DNA of 32,000 nucleotides from an archaeon (GTDB taxonomy: Archaea > Iainarchaeota > Iainarchaeia > Iainarchaeales > 1-14-0-10-31-34), in contig JAJRVL010000011.1 of the NCBI GenBank assembly GCA_024277355.1, positions 60,001-92,000 on the forward strand, given 5' to 3'. The translations under genes were made by a program, and so were the position numbers. Positions 3,513-26,192 of this stretch are shown piece after piece. The notes beneath the pieces are model-generated. The model was not told the DNA's origin and did no database searches. It worked only from the letters and a program-made list of their open reading frames with translations. Position 1 is the stretch's first letter. Each line of letters begins with the position of its first letter.

Positions 3513-4925
3513 ATGAAAAAAATAGTTTTTATGGACTTTGAAGAACTAAAAAAAAGAAACCAGTTAATAGCAGAAGAAATCAAAAAAAGAAATAATTTTG
3601 TTATAGTTAACCATCATGATGCAGATGGATTATGTTCCGGAGCAATAATTGCAAAAGCATTAGAAAGAGAAAACAAAAAATTCAATCAGATTACAGCAAA
3701 ACAACTTTATTCTGATACAATAAGAGAAATTAAAAATTCAGGAGAAAACTATATTTTTGTTGACTTTGGTTCAGGCCAATTAAATTTGCTTGAAGAAATG
3801 CTTGAAAAAAACTATTTTGTAATAGACCACCATCAGCCAGTAAAATCTGATTACTTATTTCATTCAAATCCTTTTTTGTTTGGGTTTGACGGAGGCAAAG
3901 AAGTTTCAGGAGCAGGAATGACTTATTTTTTAGCAAAAGAATTAAATGAAAAAAACAAGGATTTAAGTGCATTAGCAATTGTTGGAGCAGTAGGAGACAT
4001 GCAGGATTATGAAGGCGAATTAACCGGATTAAACCGAAAAATTTTAGCTGATGCAGAAGAAATGAAATTAATAAAAAAAGAAAAAGATTTGAGGTTATAT
4101 GGAAAAATTTCAAGGCCTTTAACTCAGTTTCTTTCTTTTTCTTCTAATCCAATTTTTCCCGGCTTAGCAGCAAATGACAAAGCATGCGTTGACTTTATTT
4201 TAAATTCAGGAATTGAATTAAAAGAAAAAAATGCATGGAAAACTTATTCAGATTTAACTAAAGAAGAAAAAAAAACTTTTACTTCAAATTTAATTGTTTA
4301 TTCAATTGAAAATGGTTTCAGTGAATGGAAAGCACAAAATATTATTGGAGAAACATACACTTTACTGAAAGAAAACCCAAAAAGCCCTTTAAGAGATGCA
4401 AAAGAGTTTGCTACACTTCTTAATTCCTGCGGAAGACACGGAGAAGCACATATAGGCTTAAAAGTCTGCATGGGAGACAGAATCAACGCATACCAAAATG
4501 CAATGGAATTATTATTAGAACATAAAAGACAGTTAAGAGCAGGAATTGAATGGGTTCATGAACAGGGATTAACAGAAGAAAAAGCATTTTATTTTTTTGA
4601 TGCAGAAGAAAACATAAAAGAAGAAATTGTAGGAATAATTGCAGGAATGCTTTATGGTTCAAATTTAGTTAGCCAAAAAAAACCAATAATTGCTTTTGCA
4701 AGACAAAAAGACGGATTAATTAAAGTTAGTGCAAGAGCAACAGATGATTTAATTAGAAAAGGATTAAATTTAGGAAAAATTTTAAGAGAAACCTGCATGG
4801 AATTAGGTTCTGATGCAGAAGGCGGAGGCCATAAAATTGCAGCAGGATGCAGAATTAATTTATGGCAGCAGAATTCATTTAAAGAAAAATTAAATAAAAA
4901 AATAGCTGACAGCATTAAAATCTGA
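3513..4925 (+). CDS. RecJ-like DHH/DHHA1 phosphoesterase (archaeal RecJ/GAN-type nuclease)
   Basis: 470 aa. DHH-family motifs appear in order: VNHHDADGLCSGA, IFVDFGSG, VIDHHQP, GAVGDMQD, and the DHHA1 motif GGGHKIAAG near the C-terminus. Confidence 0.85.
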   Translation: MKKIVFMDFEELKKRNQLIAEEIKKRNNFVIVNHHDADGLCSGAIIAKALERENKKFNQITAKQLYSDTIREIKNSGENYIFVDFGSGQLNLLEEMLEKNYFVIDHHQPVKSDYLFHSNPFLFGFDGGKEVSGAGMTYFLAKELNEKNKDLSALAIVGAVGDMQDYEGELTGLNRKILADAEEMKLIKKEKDLRLYGKISRPLTQFLSFSSNPIFPGLAANDKACVDFILNSGIELKEKNAWKTYSDLTKEEKKTFTSNLIVYSIENGFSEWKAQNIIGETYTLLKENPKSPLRDAKEFATLLNSCGRHGEAHIGLKVCMGDRINAYQNAMELLLEHKRQLRAGIEWVHEQGLTEEKAFYFFDAEENIKEEIVGIIAGMLYGSNLVSQKKPIIAFARQKDGLIKVSARATDDLIRKGLNLGKILRETCMELGSDAEGGGHKIAAGCRINLWQQNSFKEKLNKKIADSIKI

Positions 4926-4966
4926 AAAAGGAAAAGCAAATAAATGTCTAATGCTTAAATAATTTA

Positions 4967-6216
4967 ATGCCAAAAAGAAAATATACTCCTGGACCAAAAA
5001 AAATTACTGTTCAAAAAAAATAATAACAGAAACAGAATACTGGAAATTAATTAAACAGGGAAAAAGAATTCCTGCAGGAGCAGAAGTAAAACCAAGAAAA
5101 GTCGGAGAAACAACTTTAGGAAAATTAAAAATAAGGTTTCATGCGGACGGTTCAATTGAAATTCCAAAATATACAGGAAAAGAAGGCAAACTAAAAAAAA
5201 GCACGCTTAGAACAAAAACAATTCCAGAAGGAGTAAGACTAATTTATCATCAAATAGAATCAGTTAAAACAAGAATTGGACAGGCAAAAGAAATTTCAAA
5301 TACAGTTTCAAGAATGCATTATGACTTAGAACATCAATGGAAAAAATTCAATCCCGCACAAAAAAAATCTTATACAAAATATCTAACAGAGCTGCTTGGA
5401 AAATTAACAAAAAACCCGCTTTTATTAAAAGAAGAAAACAAAATTCGTGCAGTTCAAAGATTTAACAATGCAAAGCAATTATTAGAAAAAGGAAATTTCC
5501 CTGCTGCTTCAGCTGTTTTAAGAGGAATAGAAAATGATATGCAGAACTGGTTAAGAAAAATGAAACTGCAAAGCACAAGACTTGAAAGAAGAAGAAGTTT
5601 AGTTGTGGATAAAAAATTCCAGAAAGATGAAAGAATTTTTTCTGCATTAGATTCAATGATTAATGTGTTTAATCAGTTAAGACAGGGAATTGAACCAAGA
5701 GCAAGGCAAAGGGTTGCTGGAACTCTTTCTTCAATTAAAAGAAAATTGTTTGCAACAGGGTTGTCAAAATTTAAAAGTGCAGGAATAATTATTGAAAAAG
5801 CAGCTGAATTAGTTAAAAAAGGAGAAATAACAAAAGCAAGAAGTTATATAAAAAATGCAAACAAAAAAACAGTTGCTGCTGCTTCAGAGATTTCTTCTAT
5901 TTATCCTGATAAATTGATGAGAATTGGAAAAAGCACAGATTTAAAATTTAAAACAACCGTTTTAGCAAATCAAACTTTATTGTTTCACGATATGATGAGT
6001 TTATGGTGGATTCCAAAAAACAAGGCAAAAAAAAAATTAATTTTAGAAACAATAACAGAACTTTCATCTTTAGCTGAAAGCACAGGAAAAAAAGAAGTAA
6101 GCAGAATTATTTTAAATGCAAAAATACAATTAACAGAAAATAAAATACAGGTATTTACTGAACTGTTTGAAAAAGCTTTAAATAAATTAGAATCAAAAAA
6201 ACAGAAACACAAATAA
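4967..6216 (+). CDS. Hypothetical basic/helical protein, contiguous only with a -1 shift in the A8 run at 5013..5020
   Basis: The ATG at 4967 opens MPKRKYTPGPKKITVQKK, then taa taa (5021..5026). The -1 frame is open from 4963 and reads IITETEYWKLIKQGKRIPAGAEVKPRKVGETTLGKL... for about 100 codons with no ATG/GTG/TTG before the ORF-track start at 5314. Combined length is about 416 aa. Confidence 0.5.
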
Positions 6217-6238
6217 ACTTTTAATGCTTAATTTATTT

Positions 6239-6796
6239 ATGCCGAGAATTCCCATTAAAAAAAGAAGAATTGTTCCTGCAAAAAAATCTGGAAAAATCCT
6301 GATTAGCGGAAACAAAGGAACTGAATATTTAAATAAATATACTTCTGCAAGGCTTACAAAACAAACTAAAAATACTTTAATAAAACTTGCAAAAAGAAAA
6401 CCTAAATTATTTGAACAAAAATATTCAAAAACAAGATTAAATTATCAGGCACTTTTTGCCAGAACAATAAAAACATTAAAAAAACACGGAATTGAAGTGG
6501 ACTTTAAAGAATTAAAACACGAAGATGAAATTACCTGGGGGCATAACCACAGGCATATTAGAGGAATTTATACTAAAACAGCTGAAAAACAAAAAGTCCA
6601 AATGTGGAAGACTGCTGAAAAAATAATGAAAAACGCTGAAAAACAAATAGTGGTGGCTGAATTATATTTGAAAACATTTTTAGAGATTGCAAAAAGCAAT
6701 GGAACAACACTTCAGGAATTTCCATCAGATATTGAATCAGGATTTAAAATAATTTCAAAGTATATTAGAAAACAAGGAGAAACTCTTATTTACTAA
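6239..6796 (+). CDS. Hypothetical basic protein whose N-terminus is paralogous to neighbouring genes
   Basis: The ORF track starts at 6224 (MLNLF-MPRIPIKK...). The ATG at 6239 gives MPRIPIKKRRIVPAKKSGKILISGNKGTEYL, resembling KRIPAGAEVKPRKVGETTL (5065 region) and KRSPAGAFGKKPTHGTEL (31308 gene). A His cluster WGHNHRHIRG is present. Confidence 0.55.
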   Translation: MPRIPIKKRRIVPAKKSGKILISGNKGTEYLNKYTSARLTKQTKNTLIKLAKRKPKLFEQKYSKTRLNYQALFARTIKTLKKHGIEVDFKELKHEDEITWGHNHRHIRGIYTKTAEKQKVQMWKTAEKIMKNAEKQIVVAELYLKTFLEIAKSNGTTLQEFPSDIESGFKIISKYIRKQGETLIY

Positions 6797-6844
6797 AAAC
6801 CTAAATAAATAAATTTAAATCAAGTTAATTTCTAATTGAAAAAG

Positions 6845-8689
6845 ATGTATTTAATTAAAGAAAACAAAGACAAAAAATATTTGGTTTTATCAGGGAATAA
6901 AGGATTTTATTTAAGGTATTTAGATAATGGATTTAAAACTAAATGGACTGGTTTATGGAAAGATTCAGTGAAATATTTAGAATATTTTGCAGTCAAAGGC
7001 TTAGAAGAAGAAAAATGCATTAAAACAGAATACACTTATGGAAAAGCAGTTTATTATTACAAAGGAATAACAGAAACAAACTTAATTCCAAAAAACAAAA
7101 CAGGTTTATACATAAAACTTGAGTTTGGGAAAGAAAAACAAACTGAAATAGAATTAGCTTTAAATATAAGAAAAAGAGAAGAAAATTTAACTAAAAGAAA
7201 ATATAAAATAAAATTTAATAAAAAGAAAAAAGAAATAAAAATTTCAAATGAATTAAGTGCATTAACTTTTTTTTTAATTAAAGGAGAACTTAATTTTCAA
7301 GAACAATCTTATGAAAAAATTCATTTTCCTTCAGATGAAAAACAAAACTGCTTTATTCCCGGAAAAATTTCAGTTAAAGGAAAAGAAATAATTTTTGGGT
7401 TAATCCCAGAAAAAGAAAAAAAATTAAATAAACGAGAAATAGAAAAAGAACTGAAAAAACAAAAAATTCAAAACAAGAAAACTGAAGAATTAATTAAATG
7501 CAGTTCAAAAGAAATAGAAAAAGGATTTATTAATTCAGTTAAGGCAGTTGAACTGCTTGAAAACAACGGGAATTTTTTTGCTGGTTATCCCTGGTTTCTG
7601 CAGTATTGGGGAAGAGATAATTTATGGAGTTTAAATGCATTAATTTCAGCAGGCAAATTTGAATTAACTGAAAAAGTTTTATTGTATTTCTGGAAAAAAA
7701 ACAGTAACGGAAAAATACCAAACTTTATTGACGGCAAAAAAGTGTTATTTAATTCAATTGATGCTTCATTGTTATTTTTAATTTCCCTGCAGAATTATGT
7801 TTTTGCTTCAGGAAACAAAAAAATTTTAAAGAAAATTAAATACACTGAAGTGTTGGATTTTCTTAAATCAAGAGAAGAAAACAAATTGATTTTTCATGAA
7901 GGAAATGAAACATGGATGGATTCAATTGAAAGAAAAGGAAAAGCAATTGAAATTCAAGCACTATATCTTAAAGCACTACATTGTGCAAGGAATTTAATGA
8001 AATTAGAAGGAAAAGAAAAAGAAGTTCATTTAACTGAAAAAAAAGCTGTTAACTTAAACAGGAAAATAATTGAAGAATTTGAAGTTAACGGAGTTTACAG
8101 GGATTTAGTTAATGAAAAAAATGAATTCATTAAAACATGCAATCCTTTGGTTTATTTAATGGGAAAGAAAGCAGAAGAAAAAGAAATTGCTTTATTTGAA
8201 TCAGAAGAATTTAATGGACTAAAAGGAATTTTAACAAGAAGCAAAAAAGAACAGGGATTTGATTCAGAAGGATATCACACAGGATTAAGCTGGAGTTTAA
8301 TTAACGGCTGGATGAGTTGTGTTGAATTTAAAGCCGAAAAAACAAAAAAAGGATTGTTTTATCTACAAAAATTAATTGAAGATTTAAATCAAGATTGTAT
8401 TGGAGGAATAGGGGAATGCTGGTCTCTTGATGGAAAACTAAAAGGGTGCGGAATGCAGTTATGGGGAAATGCTTTTGTAATTAAAATTATCGATGAATTT
8501 ATGCTAGGAATAAAAATAAATGAATTTGAAAAAAAAGTTTTTTTAAAACCGCAATTGCCTGAAAAAATTAATTTAATTAAAAGAAAAATAAGAATTGGAA
8601 ATACTTGGTTTGAACTTATTGTTGAAAGAAAAAAAAGAAAGGTTTCAGCTAAAACAGACAACAAGAAAATTAAAATTGAATTTTATTGA
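6845..8689 (+). CDS. Glycogen debranching enzyme-like protein (amylo-alpha-1,6-glucosidase, GDE_C-type barrel)
   Basis: About 614 aa counted from the ATG at 6845; the ORF track uses a TTG at 6836. The C-terminal half carries the GDE-type block AGYPWFLQYWGRDNLWSL, then IPNFIDG, ETWMDS, EIQALYLKAL and GLSWSLINGW. Confidence 0.75.
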   Translation: MYLIKENKDKKYLVLSGNKGFYLRYLDNGFKTKWTGLWKDSVKYLEYFAVKGLEEEKCIKTEYTYGKAVYYYKGITETNLIPKNKTGLYIKLEFGKEKQTEIELALNIRKREENLTKRKYKIKFNKKKKEIKISNELSALTFFLIKGELNFQEQSYEKIHFPSDEKQNCFIPGKISVKGKEIIFGLIPEKEKKLNKREIEKELKKQKIQNKKTEELIKCSSKEIEKGFINSVKAVELLENNGNFFAGYPWFLQYWGRDNLWSLNALISAGKFELTEKVLLYFWKKNSNGKIPNFIDGKKVLFNSIDASLLFLISLQNYVFASGNKKILKKIKYTEVLDFLKSREENKLIFHEGNETWMDSIERKGKAIEIQALYLKALHCARNLMKLEGKEKEVHLTEKKAVNLNRKIIEEFEVNGVYRDLVNEKNEFIKTCNPLVYLMGKKAEEKEIALFESEEFNGLKGILTRSKKEQGFDSEGYHTGLSWSLINGWMSCVEFKAEKTKKGLFYLQKLIEDLNQDCIGGIGECWSLDGKLKGCGMQLWGNAFVIKIIDEFMLGIKINEFEKKVFLKPQLPEKINLIKRKIRIGNTWFELIVERKKRKVSAKTDNKKIKIEFY

Positions 8690-11244: not shown

Positions 11245-13023
11245 GATTATGTTGTATTAGAAGCAAGCTATGAAGTAGCAAACAAAGTTGGCGGAATACA
11301 TACAGTTTTAACAAGCAAATCAGCAAGAATGCAGGAAAAAATTCCTGAATTTTATGAGATTGGACCTTACTACAAAAAAAAAGCACAAGTAGAATTTGAA
11401 GAAAAAGAAATTCCAAATAAATTTCATAAAACTTTTGTTGAAATGGAAAAAGAATTAGGAATAAAATGCTATTATGGAAACTGGGTTGTAGCAGAAAAAT
11501 CTCCAAATTGTATTTTAATTGACCATTTAAACTTAAAGAAAAAAACAAATGAAATAAAAAAAGAGTTATGGGATGCATTTAAAATTGATTCAATGGGAAC
11601 AGACGAATGGTTTAACGAACCGGTAATCTGGAGCAAAGCAGTCGGTTTACTAATAGAAAAACTAGAAAAAAATAAAGTTTTTGGAAATAAAAAAATTGTT
11701 TCACATTTTCATGAATATTTAAGCGGAACAGGATTACTGCATTTAAAAAAAATTAAAAGCAAAACAAAAACGGTTTTTACAACTCATGCAACAGTTTTAG
11801 GAAGAACAATAGCTGAATCAAGAAAACAGGATTTATATGAATTAATTGAAAAAGGATTTAAAGAAAAACAAACTGCATCAAATGAATTAGCTTATTCTTA
11901 TGGAGTTCAGTCAAAACATTTATTAGAAAAAGCATGTGCATTAAATGCTGATGTATTTACTTCAGTAAGCAAAGCAGTAGCAAAAGAATCAGAATTTATT
12001 TTAGGAAAAAAATGCGATTTAATTCTGCCTAATGGATTAGATTTAGATAAATTTCCAATAATGGAAGACTTAAGTATTTTACATAAACAATACAGAGACA
12101 GAATAAGGCATTTTATTGAAGCATATTTTTATCCATATTATTATTTTGACATAAAAAAAACTTTGTTTTATTTTATTGCGGGAAGATATGAATTCCACAA
12201 CAAAGGAATAGACTTGTTTATTGATGCCTTAGGAGAATTAAATAAAGAACTAAAAAAACAGAAATCAGATTTAAAAATAATTGCTTTTATCTGGATTGCA
12301 GAAGAAACAACAGCAAGAAATTTAGCTGTAATGGAAAACATGGTAATACACCAAACCATAGAAGATTTAATGGAAAGAGAACTGCCTAATATTCAAAGAC
12401 AATTATTTAGAAATTTAATGGAAGGCCAAAAACTGGAAACAAATTTATTTGAAAAAGACTTTTTATTAAATTCAAAAAAAATGGCTTTAAGATTAAAAAG
12501 CAAAAAAGAAGTTTTGCCTCCAATAAGTGCATTTGAAACAAGAGAAAATGAAATATTAAAATCAATTAAAAGAAATAATTTATTAAACAAAGAAGAAGAC
12601 AAAGTCAAAATCATTTATTATCCAACTTATTTAAGTACTGCAGATGGATTAATCGGATTAAATTATTATGAAGCAATAATCGGATCACATTACGGAATTT
12701 TTCCTTCTTATTATGAACCCTGGGGTTATACTCCATTAGAAACTGCTGCTTTAGCTGTTCCTTCTGTGACAACAGATTTAGGAGGATATGGGCAGTTTAT
12801 TGAAGAAACATTAGGAAAAAAAGCTGAAGGAAGTATTCAGGTATTAAAAAGAAAAGGAAAAACATACAAAGAAGAAGTAAAAGAAATGAAAAATAAAATG
12901 AAAGATATTTATTTAATGACAAAACAGCAGAGAATGCAGAAAAAAATTAATGCAAAAGAATATTCTTTTTTGGCTGACTGGCGAAACTTAATTGAAAATT
13001 ACATTAAAGCATATGAAAGCTAA
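11242..13023 (+). CDS. Glycogen synthase, GT3 (eukaryote-type) family
   Basis: 593 aa. Shows long colinear matches to my recollection of yeast/animal glycogen synthase: EVANKVGGIHTVLTSK, HFHEYLSG, FTTHATVLGR, ADVFTSVS, ILPNGLD, LFYFIAGRYEFHNKGIDLFIDAL and GIFPSYYEPWGYTPLE. GTGATTAAATG is the start context. Confidence 0.9.
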   Translation: MDYVVLEASYEVANKVGGIHTVLTSKSARMQEKIPEFYEIGPYYKKKAQVEFEEKEIPNKFHKTFVEMEKELGIKCYYGNWVVAEKSPNCILIDHLNLKKKTNEIKKELWDAFKIDSMGTDEWFNEPVIWSKAVGLLIEKLEKNKVFGNKKIVSHFHEYLSGTGLLHLKKIKSKTKTVFTTHATVLGRTIAESRKQDLYELIEKGFKEKQTASNELAYSYGVQSKHLLEKACALNADVFTSVSKAVAKESEFILGKKCDLILPNGLDLDKFPIMEDLSILHKQYRDRIRHFIEAYFYPYYYFDIKKTLFYFIAGRYEFHNKGIDLFIDALGELNKELKKQKSDLKIIAFIWIAEETTARNLAVMENMVIHQTIEDLMERELPNIQRQLFRNLMEGQKLETNLFEKDFLLNSKKMALRLKSKKEVLPPISAFETRENEILKSIKRNNLLNKEEDKVKIIYYPTYLSTADGLIGLNYYEAIIGSHYGIFPSYYEPWGYTPLETAALAVPSVTTDLGGYGQFIEETLGKKAEGSIQVLKRKGKTYKEEVKEMKNKMKDIYLMTKQQRMQKKINAKEYSFLADWRNLIENYIKAYES

Positions 13024-24392: not shown

Positions 24393-26192
24393 ATGGATAA
24401 AAATGAATTAAATTTTGGAAAATTACTGGAAAAAATTGATTCTCCAGCAGACTTAAAAAAACTAAAAGTTGAAGAATTAGAAGAATTGTCTAAAGAAGTA
24501 AGAGAAGTTTTAATTAAAACCTGTTCAGCTAACGGAGGACATATTGGGGCAAATTTAGGAGTAGTTGAATTAAGCATTGCATTGCATTATGTTTTTAATT
24601 CTCCTCAAGACAAATTTTTGTTTGATACAAGCCATCAAAGTTATACTCACAAATTATTGACTGGAAGGAAAAAAGATTTCCATACAATCTGCACTCCAAA
24701 AGGAATTCCAAGATTTACAGTAAGAAATGAAACTCCATTTGATAACTGGAGTGCAGGCCATGCTTCAACTGCATTAAGCGGAGCAATGGGAATGGCTGAA
24801 GCAAGAAAAACAAACAAACAAGAATATGAAGTAGTAGCAGTAACAGGCGACGGAGCATTAACCGGCGGAATGTGTTATGAAGCACTAAATAATATCGGGT
24901 ATAACCAGACAGATGTAATTTTAATTTTAAATGACAACAAAATGAGCATTTCTCCTAATGTAGGTGCAATGTATAAACATTTGAAAAAGCTGTCAATGTT
25001 TGCAGACGAAAAAATTCCACGAAGAGAAGTAGGAACAATATTTGAAAAATTAGGAATTCAATATTACGGGCCGGTTGACGGCCATAACGTAAAAAAATTA
25101 GTTGAAGAATTAGAAAATTTAAAAGACTTAAAAGGACCAAAATTGCTTCATGTATTAACCATTAAAGGAAAAGGAATGGAATACATGGAAAACGATAAAG
25201 CAACATGGCATGAGCACCCTGCATTTGATGTTGAAACCGGCCAGCCAATAAAAAAAGGACCTGCAAAAATAGAAAAAATTGCAGTTCAGGCTTTAATGGA
25301 ATTAGCAGAACAAGATAAATCAATTGTGGGAATTACAGCAGCAATGCCTGCAGGAACCGCTTTAATTGAATTCAGCAAAAAATTCCCTGACAGATTTTAT
25401 GATGTAGGAATAGCAGAAGAACACGCAGTTACTTTTGCAGCAGGATTAGCTGCAGAAAAAACAAAACCTTTTGTAGTAATTTACAGTCCTTTTTTGCAGA
25501 GAGCTTTTGATCAGGTAGCACATGATGTTGCATTACAGGATTTGCCGGTAAAATTATTGGTTCCAAAAGCAGCAATAACCGGAGACGGCCCAACACAAGG
25601 AGGAATCCTTGACTTCAGTTATCTGAGAATTATTCCAAACTTAATTGTAATGGCGCCAAAAGATGAAAACGAATTAAGACATATGATTAAAACCGCACAA
25701 GAATACAATAAAGGACCAATTAGTGTCAGATACCCAAAAGGAAATGCTTTAGGAGTAGAATTAGATAAAGAAATGAAATCAATTGAAATAGGAAAAGCTG
25801 AAATGATTAAAGAAGGAAAAGACATTTCTTTGATTAGTATTGGATTTATGTTAAAAGAAACAGTTGAAGCTGCTGAGATTTTAAAGAAAGAAGGGATTGA
25901 TGCTGAAGTAATTAATTCAAGGTTTGTTAAACCATTAGATAGAAAAATGATTTCTGAAAGCCTGAAAAAAACAGGAAAAGGAATCACAATAGAAGAAAAT
26001 ATTCTTCCCGGAGGGTTTGGTTCAGCTGTCTTGGAAATGCTTGAAGCTAAAGGACTAAATGAAGTTGTATTGCAGAGAATAGGCGCACCAGACGAATATA
26101 TTGGTTATGACAGTCCAAATGAAATCAAAAAACAGTTTGGAATGGATGCAGAAAGCATAGTAAAAAAAGTTAAAAAAATGCTTGGAAAATAA
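24393..26192 (+). CDS. dxs: 1-deoxy-D-xylulose-5-phosphate synthase
   Basis: Motifs present: SPADLKKL, NGGHIGANLGVVELSIALHYVF, DTSHQSYTHKLLTGR, the ThDP motif GDGALTGGMCYEALNN, and IAEEHAVTFAAGLA. The ORF-track TTG at 24369 is an alternative start. Confidence 0.9.
   Translation: MDKNELNFGKLLEKIDSPADLKKLKVEELEELSKEVREVLIKTCSANGGHIGANLGVVELSIALHYVFNSPQDKFLFDTSHQSYTHKLLTGRKKDFHTICTPKGIPRFTVRNETPFDNWSAGHASTALSGAMGMAEARKTNKQEYEVVAVTGDGALTGGMCYEALNNIGYNQTDVILILNDNKMSISPNVGAMYKHLKKLSMFADEKIPRREVGTIFEKLGIQYYGPVDGHNVKKLVEELENLKDLKGPKLLHVLTIKGKGMEYMENDKATWHEHPAFDVETGQPIKKGPAKIEKIAVQALMELAEQDKSIVGITAAMPAGTALIEFSKKFPDRFYDVGIAEEHAVTFAAGLAAEKTKPFVVIYSPFLQRAFDQVAHDVALQDLPVKLLVPKAAITGDGPTQGGILDFSYLRIIPNLIVMAPKDENELRHMIKTAQEYNKGPISVRYPKGNALGVELDKEMKSIEIGKAEMIKEGKDISLISIGFMLKETVEAAEILKKEGIDAEVINSRFVKPLDRKMISESLKKTGKGITIEENILPGGFGSAVLEMLEAKGLNEVVLQRIGAPDEYIGYDSPNEIKKQFGMDAESIVKKVKKMLGK

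Follow-up and report, generated by a model that had tools for sequence, protein, structure and literature searches.

Programmed -1 ribosomal frameshifting takes place on A_AAA_AAR heptamers in bacterial dnaX and in insertion sequence (IS) elements. Known programmed -1 sites are kept by purifying selection, usually come with stimulators, and give two useful products. The same type of heptamer is used in archaea and their viruses, as in the Mg-chelatase gene of Methanocaldococcus and the tail-assembly (G-T) genes of haloarchaeal viruses (PMC5009743). In Buchnera and Blochmannia, frameshifts in poly(A) tracts are described as rescued by transcriptional slippage (Tamas et al. 2008, cited in PMC3017870; Williams & Wernegreen 2010, PMC3017870), and insertions into transcripts are known to prevail in A/T runs and to rise exponentially with run length (PMC5574713). 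On the technical side, gene calls can be fragmented by wrong homopolymer lengths in a consensus sequence, and IDEEL-type tests measure this problem (Sereika et al. 2022, PMC9262707). The gene considered here lies at positions 4967-6216 of a stretch of 32,000 nucleotides (the window; positions 60,001 to 92,000 of contig JAJRVL010000011.1, assembly GCA_024277355.1) from an archaeon of the Iainarchaeales, and it is broken at a run of eight A (A8) that is directly followed by a stop codon. The break most probably reflects an assembled sequence that lacks one A, and not an evolved frameshift signal.

The gene starts with the ATG at 4967-4969 on the plus strand, and direct reading of the 0 frame gives MPKRKYTPGPKKITVQKK, which is the ATG and 17 further codons (4967-5020). 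With a codon table that was trained on the host genome's own long open reading frames (ORFs), this 5' segment scores 0.61 bit per codon, and in this frame only. It ends with CAA AAA AAA at 5012-5020, the A8 run covering 5013-5020, and is closed by TAA TAA at 5021-5026, just as the first-pass annotation had read it. The heptamer A_AAA_AAA at 5014-5020 has the form X_XXY_YYZ and lies in the 0 frame where the two ORFs overlap. In the -1 frame, the bases of the two stop codons are read as (A)TA ATA A.., which is Ile-Ile, and this frame stays open between 4963 and its stop codon (6214-6216); it carries the gene body at 5020-6216 on the plus strand, with 398 codons (P0014) and the stop. There is no ATG, GTG or TTG in the -1 frame before 5314, and thus 98 start-less codons follow the A run, which the first-pass annotation had counted as about 100 and had taken as almost certainly translated. 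The stretch is coding, since its codon score is 0.66 bit per codon, above the long-gene median of 0.54, and the other five frames are negative. It also contains positions that are invariant among the orthologues (Y7, P18, G20, D43, G44, and R73 to V82 of P0014). The first ATG of the -1 frame (5314-5316, plus strand) opens an ORF of 300 residues (P0001) and is what a gene caller would report as the start, although it lies inside the conserved protein and matches orthologue residue 117; the ORF should be read as a protein of 416 residues.

In a protein search, the joined product of 416 residues found 12 relatives at 48-62% identity, mostly from metagenome assemblies. These orthologues are contiguous ORFs of mostly 416-432 residues, with one fragment of 355 residues and one truncated sequence among the 12, and the combination of A run and TAA is not conserved in them. 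The joined product aligns without gaps from Met1, with QKK|IITETEY at the junction where the consensus is PKxxLTExEY, and the 5' segment matches the N-termini of 11 full-length orthologues (MPxKKYxPxxKRLxGPK). As the orthologues are single ORFs that align with the joined product in this way, the two pieces are one gene, which a single additional A (or a -1 shift) makes whole, and with A9 in place of A8 the run would be read as CAA AAA AAA ATA ATA ACA, which is QKKIIT. This one gene encodes a conserved protein of about 416 residues that is found only in DPANN archaea. Both frames are open over 61 bases (4963-5023), and these also contain a first A8 run (4996-5003, plus strand) that is in frame as read and is the alternative, less likely place of the missing base. 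With a shift at that first run, the protein would read NYCS where a shift at the second run gives ITVQ; NYCS is further from the orthologue consensus L-x-G-P, and the alignment therefore slightly favours the second run (5013-5020). Downstream of the break, the same gene has an A10 run at 6027-6036 and A8 runs at 5193-5200 and 5360-5367, all of them in frame, so that breakage is not predicted by run length alone.

The same lesion recurs elsewhere in the genome of this DPANN-type archaeon, which has 1.13 Mb on 11 contigs, 28% GC, and 2158 A/T runs of 8 or more. A census was made of ORF pairs that overlap on an A/T run of at least 6, with a good coding score on both sides and no start near the junction, and the candidates were judged by codon scores and by reading the joined proteins, only some of which were checked against PDB sequences. 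It gave at least 12 genuine splits at A6-A10 runs, and 12 of 12 need one more A; genuine splits at runs of 6 or more that need one A fewer were not found in the genome. Four candidates of that latter type were merely adjacent genes, such as S9/RpoN and S24e/S27ae. Apart from the gene in the window (A8 at 5013, or C9:65013), the broken genes are, with "rc" marking coordinates on the reverse-complement strand of a contig, rad50 (A7, C11 rc 15085), top6B (A8, C2 419471), a FlaI-like ATPase gene (A10, C11 rc 87988), the adenine phosphoribosyltransferase (APRT) gene (A6, C10 55151), a methyltransferase gene (A9, C7 23257), a CMP-kinase-like gene (A8, C3 rc 62114), an NTP_transf_5 gene (A9, C9 25025), hel308 (A7, C9 rc 98544), a metallophosphoesterase gene (A7, C11 rc 9598), aspS (A7, C2 rc 239473), and an aminotransferase gene (A8, C7 59357). 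When each run is counted at the length that the intact gene would have and compared with intact coding-strand runs, about 0.05% of the A7, 0.5% of the A8, 2% of the A9, 10% of the A10 and 25% of the A11 runs are interrupted, in each case because one A is lacking, and this steep rise with run length is the signature of slippage. The first-pass annotation had argued from in-frame A7-A9 runs in other genes that miscalling is not evident, which does not stand against these genome-wide fractions; its example, an A9 run in the glycogen synthase gene, is indeed in frame, but it lies at 11374-11382 and not at 11373-11381. All 12 breaks are in coding-strand A runs and none is in a T run, but among coding-strand runs of at least 7 bases there are 4.8 A runs to every T run, and as the probability of finding none in T runs is about 0.10, this bias is not informative. 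The direction of the breaks was likewise dropped as a discriminator, because contraction in vitro and selection for rescuable alleles both predict that one A has to be added (PMC5574713). The only frameshift of opposite sign that was seen lies outside long homopolymers, in a RaSEA-like radical-SAM gene (C2 rc 313247-313430) whose frame is broken by an additional T in the T3 run of GATTTAC.

A second type of defect accompanies the poly-A breaks. At least 5 in-frame stops have strong coding signals on both sides, and the 3 that were checked are in conserved enzymes. The stops are found in the deoxyhypusine synthase gene (C7:24598-25920, plus strand), where a TGA at 25669 lies inside the conserved IILGG motif and aligns to a Ser of PDB 7cmc, in the M17 leucyl aminopeptidase gene (C6:3980-5452, plus strand; TGA at 4244), in a dCTP-deaminase-like gene (C3 rc 24-600; TAA at rc 177), in the gene of a long coiled-coil protein (C2 rc 123346-125160; TAA at rc 123634), and in the gene of a protein of 2400 residues (C10:93536-100892; TAA at 100748). 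Slippage cannot rescue in-frame stops, and therefore some sequence-damaging process acts in this dataset. This process is evidently not filtered by selection, as it placed a stop in deoxyhypusine synthase and breaks in the middle of domains of aspS, top6B and APRT. A common G-to-T origin of the stops was considered and rejected, since only a GAA to TAA change at a contig end fits it and the deoxyhypusine synthase stop stands at a position that is Ser in PDB 7cmc. The deoxyhypusine synthase also has an N-terminal extension of about 130 residues in which, judged by eye, a likeness to pyruvoyl-type S-adenosylmethionine decarboxylases can be seen (…SHISIHTYPE…). It would be uncommon for two enzymes of the polyamine/hypusine pathway to be fused.

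At the contig ends, some loci are present twice. The last 338 bases of C7 (59242-59579) represent the same locus as C2:1-339, so that the aminotransferase locus is present twice, in C2 with an A9 run and an intact frame and in C7 with an A8 run and a broken frame. Similarly, C9:111021-111364 corresponds to C11:1-345, with T10 in C9 and T11 in C11, and C9:1-324 (rc) corresponds to C3:1-324. The flanks of these three long overlaps are regular, at 122-123 and 131 bases, and the overlaps contain four further substitutions, of which two are non-synonymous, one changes GAA to TAA, and one is in a tRNA gene, with 0 synonymous changes. As none of the three coding substitutions is synonymous, they are better explained by unselected change than by natural polymorphism. 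The end of C4 and the start of C6, as well as the ends of C11 and C8, have exactly 141 bases in common, and these exact overlaps together with the regular flanks suggest a short-read de Bruijn assembly with k=141. The overlapping contigs could probably be joined. The coexistence of A8 and A9 at the aminotransferase locus could also be taken to speak for slipped-strand phase variation, in which a reversible mixture of A8 and A9 in the population would switch the gene off and on, and the position of the run near the 5' end of the gene in the window would agree with this. Such switching is nevertheless highly improbable, as the remaining breaks affect core housekeeping functions (aspS, top6B and others) and not contingency loci, and the variants that are linked to the length changes look unselected and not like maintained alleles.

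Two genomes of the same genus with similar densities of A/T runs, G004 (495 kb) and G002 (566 kb), were examined as a sample of 1.06 Mb. They contain 1 strong poly-A split where 7.1 would be expected at the per-run rate of the genome of the window (Poisson P ~0.007), and 0 splits by in-frame stops where 4.7 would be expected (P ~0.009). Because these congeners with similar run loads fall below the expected counts, the surplus of broken genes belongs to this assembly or to this one lineage. The frameshift at 5013-5020 is not shared by any relative that was found. A search of metagenome contigs for the exact flanks with a variable run length gave no independent copies, and a protein search gave no near-identical product of 416 or 300 residues besides the window's own.

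Taken together, about a dozen unrelated genes, many of them with housekeeping functions, are broken with the same sign, in-frame stops are added to this, and a locus that the assembly contains twice has A8 in one copy and A9 in the other, which is why an artefact is the preferred explanation. A one-base error had been the last option named in the first-pass annotation, and with same-sign defects across the assembly and a break that relatives do not have, it turns out to fit best. The working copy in the cell would then have A9 at 5013-5020 and one open frame, and the A8 of the assembly would be a contraction by one base that found its way into the consensus. The defects would have arisen in vitro and not in the organism, possibly by polymerase slippage and misincorporation during the amplification of a low-input library, or by low depth or another loss of consensus quality. 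When low-input libraries are amplified, slippage errors are mainly contractions and they grow with run length. As in the case of described homopolymer consensus errors (PMC9262707), the break is in a homopolymer, one base restores a full-length orthologue, many genes are affected with the same sign, the rate climbs with run length, and the excess is assembly-specific. Unlike in these classical cases, which come from long reads, the 141-base overlaps point here to a short-read de Bruijn assembly, and the indels come along with in-frame stops. As the overlaps point to short reads, the errors would need to stem from amplification or from low depth and not from base-calling. If the defects are artefacts, this genome, the representative of its species, has about 18 defects that break genes (12 contracted poly-A runs, one additional T, and at least 5 stops), and annotation will turn them into pseudogenes or split genes.

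Several observations weigh against an artefact. With a short-read de Bruijn origin, consensus errors at A6-A8 homopolymers are unusual unless there was heavy amplification or low coverage. The bias to contractions would be expected also if rescue by the RNA polymerase selects the alleles, as insertions prevail in transcripts (PMC5574713). In Blochmannia vafer, 8 genes with frameshifts in homopolymer tracts have been found, including dnaG and pth (PMC3017870). Finally, the G002 orthologue of the gene is itself split, at a different A7 run (GGCAAAAAAAGCC, L005 ~1528-1540 on the minus strand, G002:C26), and also needs one more A, so that such lesions are not confined to the assembly of the window. 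The source record of G002 annotates only a front half of 267 residues (P0013) of this orthologue.

The main rival explanation is that A8 is real and that the gene is expressed at a reduced level by a leaky, unprogrammed rescue, in which the RNA polymerase adds an A on the run and/or ribosomes slip by -1 on A_AAA_AAA before the TAA. Such a rescue is possible but unlikely, although a good deal is consistent with it. The genome is small (1.13 Mb), AT-rich (28% GC) and dense in A/T runs, both halves of the gene have full coding quality, all 12 breaks need an added A, which is the direction that transcript insertions supply (PMC5574713), similar numbers of essential genes with frameshifts are regarded as real in Blochmannia (PMC3017870), the overlap geometry points to short reads, in which homopolymer consensus errors are rare, and the split at another A7 in G002 shows a similar lesion in a relative. 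Like Buchnera and Blochmannia, the archaeon has a small AT-rich genome with single poly(A) indels in otherwise intact, even essential genes, and in both cases about ten genes per genome are affected (PMC3017870). The indels of the endosymbionts, however, were verified on DNA, their long tracts were counted from 9 bases, their transcripts were mixed, and some of the frameshifts were conserved between species (PMC3017870), whereas several tracts are only A6-A8 here, the frameshift is not conserved, and the case is known from assembled sequence. In APRT, aspS, rad50 and hel308, runs of only A6-A7 are broken in the middle of domains, and slippage drops exponentially with decreasing run length (PMC5574713). 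A rescue by slippage also gives no account of the in-frame stops in deoxyhypusine synthase and other genes, the frameshift is conserved in no relative, congeners with similar run loads lack the excess, and at the one locus that was sampled twice an intact A9 exists. In its widest form this alternative would mean that all 12 runs are really one A short and that a dozen genes (aspS, top6B, rad50, hel308, APRT and others) are expressed by insertion slippage of the polymerase and/or -1 slippage of ribosomes on A_AAA_AAN, which is rather doubtful. The trans-frame peptide predicted for the joined product, ITVQKKIITETEYWK, would be the same from an A9 gene, from transcript slippage, and from a ribosomal -1 shift. 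If A8 were real, the rescue of poly(A) frameshifts by slippage would extend from bacterial endosymbionts to DPANN archaea, and the case would bear on how far expression tolerates mutational decay in episymbiotic archaea.

A real A8 could also be left without any rescue, the gene then being a very young pseudogene or giving only the 300-residue product from the ATG at 5314. With 50-57% identity in genomes in which its upstream neighbour has 77-79%, the gene evolves faster than its neighbours. A search for orthologues in 41 genomes gave matches in 7, including that of the window, of which only 5 are convincing, and this suggests that the gene is dispensable in some lineages; the broken copy in G002 is in line with such a decay. 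There is, however, no second lesion in the gene, the codon usage is undiminished in both parts, and the 98 start-less codons contain many positions that are invariant in the orthologues. As, in addition, the same lesion is found in a dozen housekeeping genes, which cannot all be pseudogenes, this explanation is improbable.

The mechanism that the first-pass annotation had named first is programmed -1 ribosomal frameshifting on the A_AAA_AAA heptamer, with the neighbouring stop codon TAA as the stimulator. As an evolved recoding signal, it would set the amount of full-length protein. Formally, the X_XXY_YYZ heptamer directly before the stop supports this, and with respect to heptamer and shift direction the site is like the programmed A_AAA_AAR sites of the Methanocaldococcus Mg-chelatase type (PMC5009743). 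It differs from programmed sites in being unique to one assembly, in having no stimulator, and in that its 0-frame product is a stub of 18 residues without a plausible role. The site is absent in 12 of 12 orthologues, including the syntenic ones of the same genus, which have CCAAAAGTTGTT (G004) and GGGAAAAACAGCC (G002) at the position of the break and no A run there. A stimulatory RNA structure was not found downstream, as the region 5021-5110 folds at -7 kcal/mol, with z = -0.44 relative to shuffled sequences. The heptamer is certainly present, but an A run with a length of at least 8 has an A_AAA_AAN whatever its phase, so that it comes automatically with A8 and is not above chance: it is found at 11 of the 12 broken sites, and about 85% would be expected for A7 runs from the phases of in-frame runs. 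The distance from the run to the 0-frame stop varies from 0 to 40 codons at the 12 sites, and an adjacent stop is not their common feature; the stop that adjoins the run here is an accident of ATA ATA being read one base late. Heptamer and stop distance are therefore uninformative about programmed shifting, because any Lys-Lys run that is one A short yields them at 28% GC. The lack of conservation by itself largely refutes programmed recoding, and eleven other genes would need the same explanation; it almost certainly does not apply, and the one-base flaw in the assembled sequence remains the preferred explanation of the break.

The protein has no Pfam model, the only Pfam match being a sub-threshold one to YfdX. 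An AlphaFold2 model of the -1-frame part is confident, with a predicted local distance difference test score (pLDDT) of 85.7 and a predicted template modelling score (pTM) of 0.75, and it begins with two N-terminal beta strands that are followed by helices; a Foldseek search of the PDB with this model gave no match below E = 0.08 or above a template modelling (TM) score of 0.25. The first-pass annotation had described a KR-x-PAGA block as common to two paralogues, but tblastn with the joined protein against the whole genome gave no paralogue at E<1, and KR.PAG occurs elsewhere in the genome only as a short motif in ORFs without a tblastn link to the gene. The KRIPAGA block is a conserved motif of the orthologues, where it reads GKxVPQGA. 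The family (window 4967-6216 and the orthologues P0002-P0012), with members of about 418 residues, has been seen only in metagenome assemblies of DPANN type, and the source record of one orthologue carries the label Candidatus Diapherotrites.

The neighbouring genes serve as synteny anchors. Upstream, at 3513-4925 on the plus strand, lies the gene of a GAN/RecJ-Cdc45-like DHH nuclease (Pfam DHH, DHH_CID, DHHA1), which has 77-79% identity to its counterparts in G004 and G002, where it likewise adjoins the orthologue. Downstream, at 6836-8689 on the plus strand, an amylo-alpha-1,6-glucosidase-type protein (Pfam GDE_C) is encoded, with 63-67% identity, and its gene directly follows the orthologue in G004 and G002. 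As GAN and GDE_C flank the orthologue on both sides in two genomes of the same genus, the orthology is secure. Between the gene and the GDE_C gene, the window has an additional ORF (6224-6796, plus strand) that has no Pfam match and is absent from this position in G004 and G002; it encodes 190 residues with a basic N-terminus (MPRIPIKKRRIVPAKKSGK).

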